NCBI RefSeq assembly: GCF_044324875.1
Contig: NZ_CP172185.1
Direction: 5' to 3' (one strand)
Length of the DNA: 64,000 bases
From: Escherichia coli
GTDB lineage: Bacteria > Pseudomonadota > Gammaproteobacteria > Enterobacterales > Enterobacteriaceae
Shown: one piece after another, positions 40,442 through 40,603 of the stretch
Position numbering within the stretch: position 1 is the stretch's first letter
Layout: each line of letters starts with the position of its first letter
Translations under genes and position numbers: made by a program
Notes under the pieces: generated by a model
What the model saw: the letters and a program-made list of their open reading frames with translations, nothing else
Databases searched by the model: none
Told to the model about the DNA's origin: nothing

Positions 40442-40569
40442 TAACCAGGGGTAGTTATCACGCTGCCCTTGGTTCTTTATCTGAATTTGCATTCAACTGG
40501 CGGATTAATCGTCAATTTAAGAGAAAGAGTTACACCGTCACCACTTCCGTGCACTGTATAAAAATCCTA

Positions 40570-40589
40570 TACTGTACGTATCGACAGTT
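40570..40589. promoter_or_regulatory. LexA box (CTGT-N8-ACAG) upstream of ydjM
   Basis: tactgtacgtatcgacagtt read directly; a second degenerate copy may lie just upstream (cactgtataaaaatcctata). Confidence 0.5.
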
Positions 40590-40603
40590 TAGTGAGTTTT
40601 ATC

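Follow-up and report, generated by a model that had tools for sequence, protein, structure and literature searches.

ydjM and cho (ydjQ) have been listed as SOS genes of Escherichia coli since 2000-2002, and the intergenic region in front of ydjM raises the question of how many LexA operators it holds and what kind of site each of them is. We examined this region in a 64-kb stretch of E. coli DNA (contig NZ_CP172185.1; hereafter the window), which also contains cho. The original prediction had placed a canonical LexA box about 15 bp upstream of the ydjM start, a second, degenerate copy immediately upstream of that box and a CTGG-N8-CCAG palindrome upstream of cho, and had regarded both genes as known SOS genes that could serve as positive controls. 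We are confident that 40552-40589 is a tandem SOS operator of ydjM, in which a full box (box 1) is accompanied, at an offset of 18 bp, by a weaker box of the half-site type (box 2) (Table 1). Both genes were identified as expected. The YdjM protein matched the Pfam family PF04307 (YdjM, E = 7e-36) and the NCBIfam equivalog NF008651 (E = 7.6e-113), and the start of ydjM was set at the ATG at 40604, within a mechanical ORF of 40592-41194, by the RefSeq homologous locus and the K-12 annotation. The cho ORF encodes 295 aa, in which no Pfam family was found at E <= 0.001. Both ydjM boxes lie between hxpB, whose ORF ends at 40441, and ydjM, in an intergenic region of 162 bp. K-12 MG1655 has the same 71 bases here, from 65 nt 5' of the ydjM ATG to the sixth coding base.

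Table 1. Features of the ydjM and cho regions in the window. The last column gives column conservation as the major-allele frequency among 80 species.
Feature	Position	Strand	Description or support	Major-allele frequency
Terminator-like hairpin 3' of hxpB	40443-40474	+	upstream boundary of the regulatory region of ydjM	
Conserved 33-bp block 5' of box 2	40519-40551	.	consensus GACAAAGAGTTACACCGTCACCTCTTCCGCC	0.93
Candidate -35 hexamer TTCCGT	40545-40550	+	17-bp spacer to the candidate -10; 2 of 6 positions match TTGACA	
LexA box 2 of ydjM, CACTGTATAAAAATCCTATA	40552-40571	.	PWM 12.54; fixed 18-bp register; printed in PMC4576408	
Box 2 left arm				0.98
Box 2 "right arm" CCTA				1.00
Candidate -10 hexamer TATACT of the ydjM promoter	40568-40573	+	invariant in 80/80 species	
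LexA box 1 of ydjM, TACTGTACGTATCGACAGTT	40570-40589	.	sequence read	
Box 1 arms				0.95 and 1.00
ydjM CDS, 196 aa	40604-41194	+	inner-membrane putative metal-dependent hydrolase; Pfam, NCBIfam, RefSeq homologous loci	
ydjM third codon positions				0.64
Distal intergenic region				0.67
LexA box of cho, CACTGGATAGATAACCAGCA (CTGG-N8-CCAG)	54984-55003	.	PWM 19.46, cho excluded from training	
cho (ydjQ) CDS, GTG start	55017-55904	+	NCBIfam NF007833 "excinuclease Cho" equivalog, E = 8.7e-174	

For the scoring of the boxes, a symmetrised LexA position weight matrix (PWM) was built from 17 published E. coli boxes, namely the 18 sites of PMC3009722 Table 4 minus cho; ydjM does not appear in that table, and therefore neither of the two test genes was in the training set. 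The consensus was taken as the 20-mer TACTG(TA)5CAGTA with a CTGT-N8-ACAG core and an AT-rich spacer (PMC6590174). The best matches in the window were the cho box (19.46 bits), 10827-10846 (18.19 bits), box 1 (15.66 bits) and box 2 (12.54 bits), followed by a fifth at 10.55, and the PWM scan that had been proposed as the check on the boxes thus returned them as three of the four best matches, at ranks 1, 3 and 4. In 300 dinucleotide-preserving shuffles, the mean numbers of matches per 64 kb were 0.28, 0.06 and 0.013 at >=12.5, >=15.6 and >=18 bits, respectively, versus 4, 3 and 2 in the window, an enrichment of more than 10-fold. The score of box 1 falls just under 15.92, the 95th percentile of the maximum per shuffled window, and box 1, judged window-wide on the PWM alone, is borderline. 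Its case is strong because of its position in a promoter region, the second match 18 bp away and the conservation across species. The chance of a second match at that distance is ~3e-4, as calculated from the per-position p in the shuffles. The published LexA sites, scored by leave-one-out, ranged from 3.9 (polB) to 28.6; the cho box (19.5) and box 1 (15.7) are within this range of validated sites and above background, box 1 being comparable to uvrD and ftsK, and box 2 is slightly below dinB and dinG. When CTGG/CCAG is tolerated as a variant of the CTGT-N8-ACAG core, the core is present in box 1 and in the cho box, and in box 2 it is present in the left arm and spacer only.

Two other stretches that resemble LexA boxes were rejected as operators. 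The second-ranking match in the window, AGCTGTATTTTTATCCAGGG at 10827-10846 (18.2 bits), falls inside a gene of a P2-family prophage, the baseplate-J ORF at 10181-11077, and evidently arises from KLYFYPG codons; the site is unconserved, as the related phages Shae_phiSM and 520873 have CCCG for the right arm and score 7.5 and 7.1. The other, CACTGGATAGATTATTAGCA at 39024-39043, is identical to the cho box at 17 of 20 positions, 12 of them contiguous, and consists of the last codons of yniA (ending in SLDRLLAA and the stop codon). Its PWM score is 4.9, and we took the likeness to be a coincidence. The P2-family prophage occupies 1-25757 and adjoins ihfA on the upstream side; in strain RM14516, btuC takes this place. 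The non-coding parts of the prophage yielded no strong LexA-like site. The part from 1 to 18786 is 99.7% identical to prophages of other E. coli, and the region after 18786 contains an IS21-family istA/istB pair (18908-21326), tail sheath, gpD and a HicB-like antitoxin gene (24968-25366). A 1.3-kb IS3-family element at 47255-48562, absent in RM14516, interrupts the 5' end of chbG; it carries orfA (47309-47635) and orfB (47632-48522, with rve/HTH_21 domains), and five RM14516 bases occur on both of its flanks. The prophage adjoining ihfA and the insertion in chbG set the host strain apart from K-12. At 29534-29537, ~147 bp found between pheS and the pheM leader in RM14516 are missing from the window.

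Box 1 was read as tactgtacgtatcgacagtt, with 14 nt between the box and the ydjM ATG, in agreement with the predicted distance. Its 16-bp core (40572-40587) is one of two exact matches to CTGT-N8-ACAG in the whole window. The word canonical fits the arms, which are perfect, but not the rest of the box: written as CTGT-ACGTATCG-ACAG, box 1 has a spacer in which 4 of the 8 bases are off the AT-rich consensus, and because ACGTATCG departs from the consensus, the score of box 1 is near the low end of the validated sites. Box 1 is therefore a mid-to-weak operator, not a strong canonical one. A literature search with the exact sequence of box 1 matched no paper.

We examined the conservation of the region at two depths. 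Within the species, the hxpB-ydjM stretch was matched in 5423 of 5426 complete E. coli genomes. Identity over 71 bp around the boxes was >=99% in 3602 of the 5421 matching genomes and 95-99% in 1818, and E. coli NIPH17_0036 was the sole genome under 95%. In this strain, 7 bp (AAATCCT) are deleted inside box 2 (window equivalent 40562-40568), which takes out the stretch that spaces the box 2 half-site from box 1 as well as the first base of TATACT; the deletion is a natural operator/promoter variant. The variant of UPEC 536 departs from the window at one base, 40565 in the spacer of box 2, which is C instead of T. Across species, a scan with YdjM as the query, in which each species was represented by one genome, yielded 80 Enterobacteriaceae loci, which include Escherichia, Citrobacter, Salmonella, Enterobacter, the Klebsiella group, Kosakonia, Leclercia, Atlantibacter, Franconibacter and others. 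In all 80 species, the two best PWM matches in the 170 bp 5' of the gene are orthologous to box 1 and box 2, with an offset of 18 bp in every one of them; the usual distances to the ATG are 14 and 32 nt, that of box 1 being 14 nt in most of the species. The box 1 of most non-Escherichia genera is TACTGTATGAATTGACAGTT, which scores 20.8 bits, and the Escherichia sequence TACTGTACGTATCGACAGTT (15.7) is ~5 bits below it because of three spacer substitutions.

Box 2 was read as cactgtataaaaatcctata. It adjoins box 1 on the upstream side, as predicted, and shares its last 2 nt (40570-40571) with it, so that its distance to the ydjM ATG is 32 nt. The description of this element as a degenerate copy did not stand, since box 2 is a conserved half-site with an AT-rich spacer and a probable -10 hexamer, not a decayed full palindrome. 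Its left arm, CTGT (40554-40557), and its spacer match the motif, and its right arm is CCTA instead of ACAG or CCAG. The left arm is present in 78 of the 80 species, always exactly 18 bp from the CTGT of box 1, the CCTA is present in all 80, and a LexA-type right arm is present in none (0/80). CCTA and the first bases of box 1 together make up the invariant TATACT. The two species that lost the CTGT arm, C. amalonaticus and Intestinirhabdus alba, still keep AAAAAyCCTATA. Because the right arm is never of the LexA type and because these two species lack the CTGT, the conservation of box 2 is partly unrelated to LexA and probably reflects the promoter. The half-site is probably fused to another selected element, most simply a -10 hexamer.

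This anatomy leads to the alternative that survives best, namely that box 1 is the sole LexA operator and that box 2 is unbound in vivo and conserved as promoter DNA (TATACT, the A-rich spacer and elements continuous with 40519-40551), its CTGT being incidental or marginal. We consider this unlikely. The invariant CCTA overlapping TATACT and the two species that keep the rest of box 2 after the loss of CTGT would fit such a reading, as would the unbroken run of conservation from box 2 into 33 bp that contain no LexA motif; the score of 12.5 is also marginal, with 0.3-0.4 chance matches expected per 64 kb, and lower than those of 16 of the 18 published boxes in the leave-one-out test. However, an incidental CTGT is difficult to reconcile with its retention at a fixed distance from box 1 in nearly all of the species. 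Moreover, PMC4576408 Table 2 gives CACTGTATAAAAATCCTATA verbatim as a LexA site of b1728, at position -52, and independent motif searches chose the same 20-mer (PMC4576408; PMC8072944 for Salmonella). Tandem LexA sites at E. coli ydjM are described as "experimentally reported" in PMC4951493, which cites Fernandez De Henestrosa et al. 2000, Mol Microbiol 35:1560, and the same paper describes an overlapping pair of a strong and a weak box as an established arrangement in colicin operators. That the matches are a chance AT-rich, palindrome-like motif in AT-rich intergenic DNA without any regulatory role is scarcely credible, for although ~6 matches of >=15.66 bits are expected in a 4.6-Mb genome (per-position p = 1.4e-6) and the same window holds a stronger match that is evidently a coding by-product, the two matches stand 18 bp apart immediately 5' of a gene, their arms are nearly invariant in the 80 species (0.95-1.0 versus 0.64-0.67 at neutral positions), and LexA binding and LexA-dependent expression have been published, so that the conservation and the published expression data effectively refute it.

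Returning to the tandem operator, we asked how the two boxes are placed relative to the ydjM promoter. Both are intergenic, and TATACT, if it is the -10 element, overlaps them. TTCCGT-17-TATACT was the best sigma-70-like promoter in 76 of the 80 species under a heuristic hexamer model, with a score not above that of shuffles, and the second-best candidate under this model was GTTACA-17-(C/T)ACTGT. A consensus sigma-70 scan of 40300-40700 found no promoter. Given the poor -35 hexamer and a promoter score that does not exceed that of shuffles, we describe the overlap of the boxes with the core promoter as probable. A transcription start site of ydjM was not found in the accessible parts of the Cappable-seq, SMRT-Cappable-seq and Kim 2012 supplements, in the last of which b1728 appears in a row of an ortholog table only; this is unsurprising because the gene is repressed in normal growth. 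Upstream of box 2, the conserved block 40519-40551, which equals the LexA boxes in conservation across the 80 species, has no LexA-like score. An Rfam scan of 40350-40700 found no RNA family, a repeat search found just one 9-nt imperfect inverted repeat, and comparison of the block by eye with CRP, MarA/SoxS, RstA, sigma-32 and sigma-E motifs gave no convincing match. Possibly, though we would not call it probable, a second regulator binds this block, or the block acts as an unusual upstream promoter element that makes up for the poor -35; ydjM would then be dually controlled, and box 2 would be a hybrid of promoter and half-operator.

For the tandem operator we propose the following mechanism, in which LexA binding and LexA-dependent induction are taken from the literature. 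In undamaged cells, LexA dimers would sit on box 1, and box 2 may also be occupied by LexA, probably via dimer-dimer cooperativity. Both boxes together would cover the putative core promoter and thereby exclude RNA polymerase: with TATACT as the -10 element, the boxes would span about -29 to +10. Upon DNA damage, RecA-ssDNA filaments would stimulate LexA self-cleavage, the operator would empty and ydjM would be transcribed. The single box upstream of cho would play the equivalent role for that gene.

The cho box was confirmed to the base at the position predicted for it. It was read as cactggatagataaccagca, that is, CTGG-ATAGATAA-CCAG, and lies 13 nt 5' of the cho GTG (55017). The published site of E. 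coli cho (PMC3009722 Table 4) has the same 25-mer, TACACTGGATAGATAACCAGCATTC, with no difference. The conservation of this box was examined within E. coli alone; of two cho variants that we read, one has its differences outside the box and the other (L088) has a C-to-T change at the first base of the box and a score of 22.4.

The operator of lexA itself likewise has two closely spaced LexA boxes in one promoter. Both of them are full palindromes and they do not overlap, whereas the second box of ydjM has one LexA-type arm only. The tandem arrangement at lexA is conserved across Gammaproteobacteria (PMC4951493). A closer likeness in geometry is found in the colicin double SOS operators (Gillor et al. 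2008, as summarised in PMC4951493), in which a strong and a weak box overlap terminally; at ydjM the scores are 15.7 and 12.5 and the overlap is 2 nt. According to PMC4951493, the overlapping pairs in colicin operators bind cooperatively and give tighter repression. The colicin operators belong to plasmid-borne toxin genes whereas ydjM is a chromosomal SOS gene of the housekeeping type, at which cooperativity is a prediction. In Salmonella, ydjM (STM14_1605) has two boxes, whose distances to the ATG are 14 and 32 bp, and ydjQ has one (PMC8072944 Table 1), with inductions of 2.11-fold and 3.33-fold, respectively (PMC8072944). The geometry is thus the same in Salmonella enterica, and in our species set diarizonae and arizonae have the same register; the box 1 of S. 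enterica is the higher-scoring TACTGTATGAATTGACAGTT (20.8), in contrast to the 15.7 of Escherichia.

Published data on E. coli place both genes in the SOS response. ydjM and cho/ydjQ are among the genes with a known SOS box (PMC6590174). In PMC11228462 Table 1, the values are 2.5 / 8.6 / 1.4 with an HI of 9.0 for ydjM and 0.77 / 5.1 / 0.87 with an HI of 7.5 for cho, where we read the columns, by analogy with Table 2 of that paper, as AZT induction, LexA dependence and SspA dependence. After ciprofloxacin, the log2FC reached up to 2.6 for ydjM and up to 1.6 for cho (PMC11002266). The window agrees with the tandem SOS boxes of K-12 ydjM (b1728) in both 20-mers, in the gene and in the spacing to the ATG, and the operator shows no differences. 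The ydjM and cho operators of the window are therefore the K-12 operators base for base and are already known, and the two genes served well as positive controls.

The value of this result is mainly one of calibration, as the recognition of LexA boxes by eye was accurate to the base and the assignments of the genes, ydjM and cho, were right. The biology itself is not new. The comparison of species adds two small refinements to the known operator: box 2 is permanently a half operator that is combined with a probable -10 hexamer, and the box 1 of Escherichia is weaker than that of most genera. Both could help in designing simple mutations with which to probe whether LexA binds cooperatively at a chromosomal promoter.
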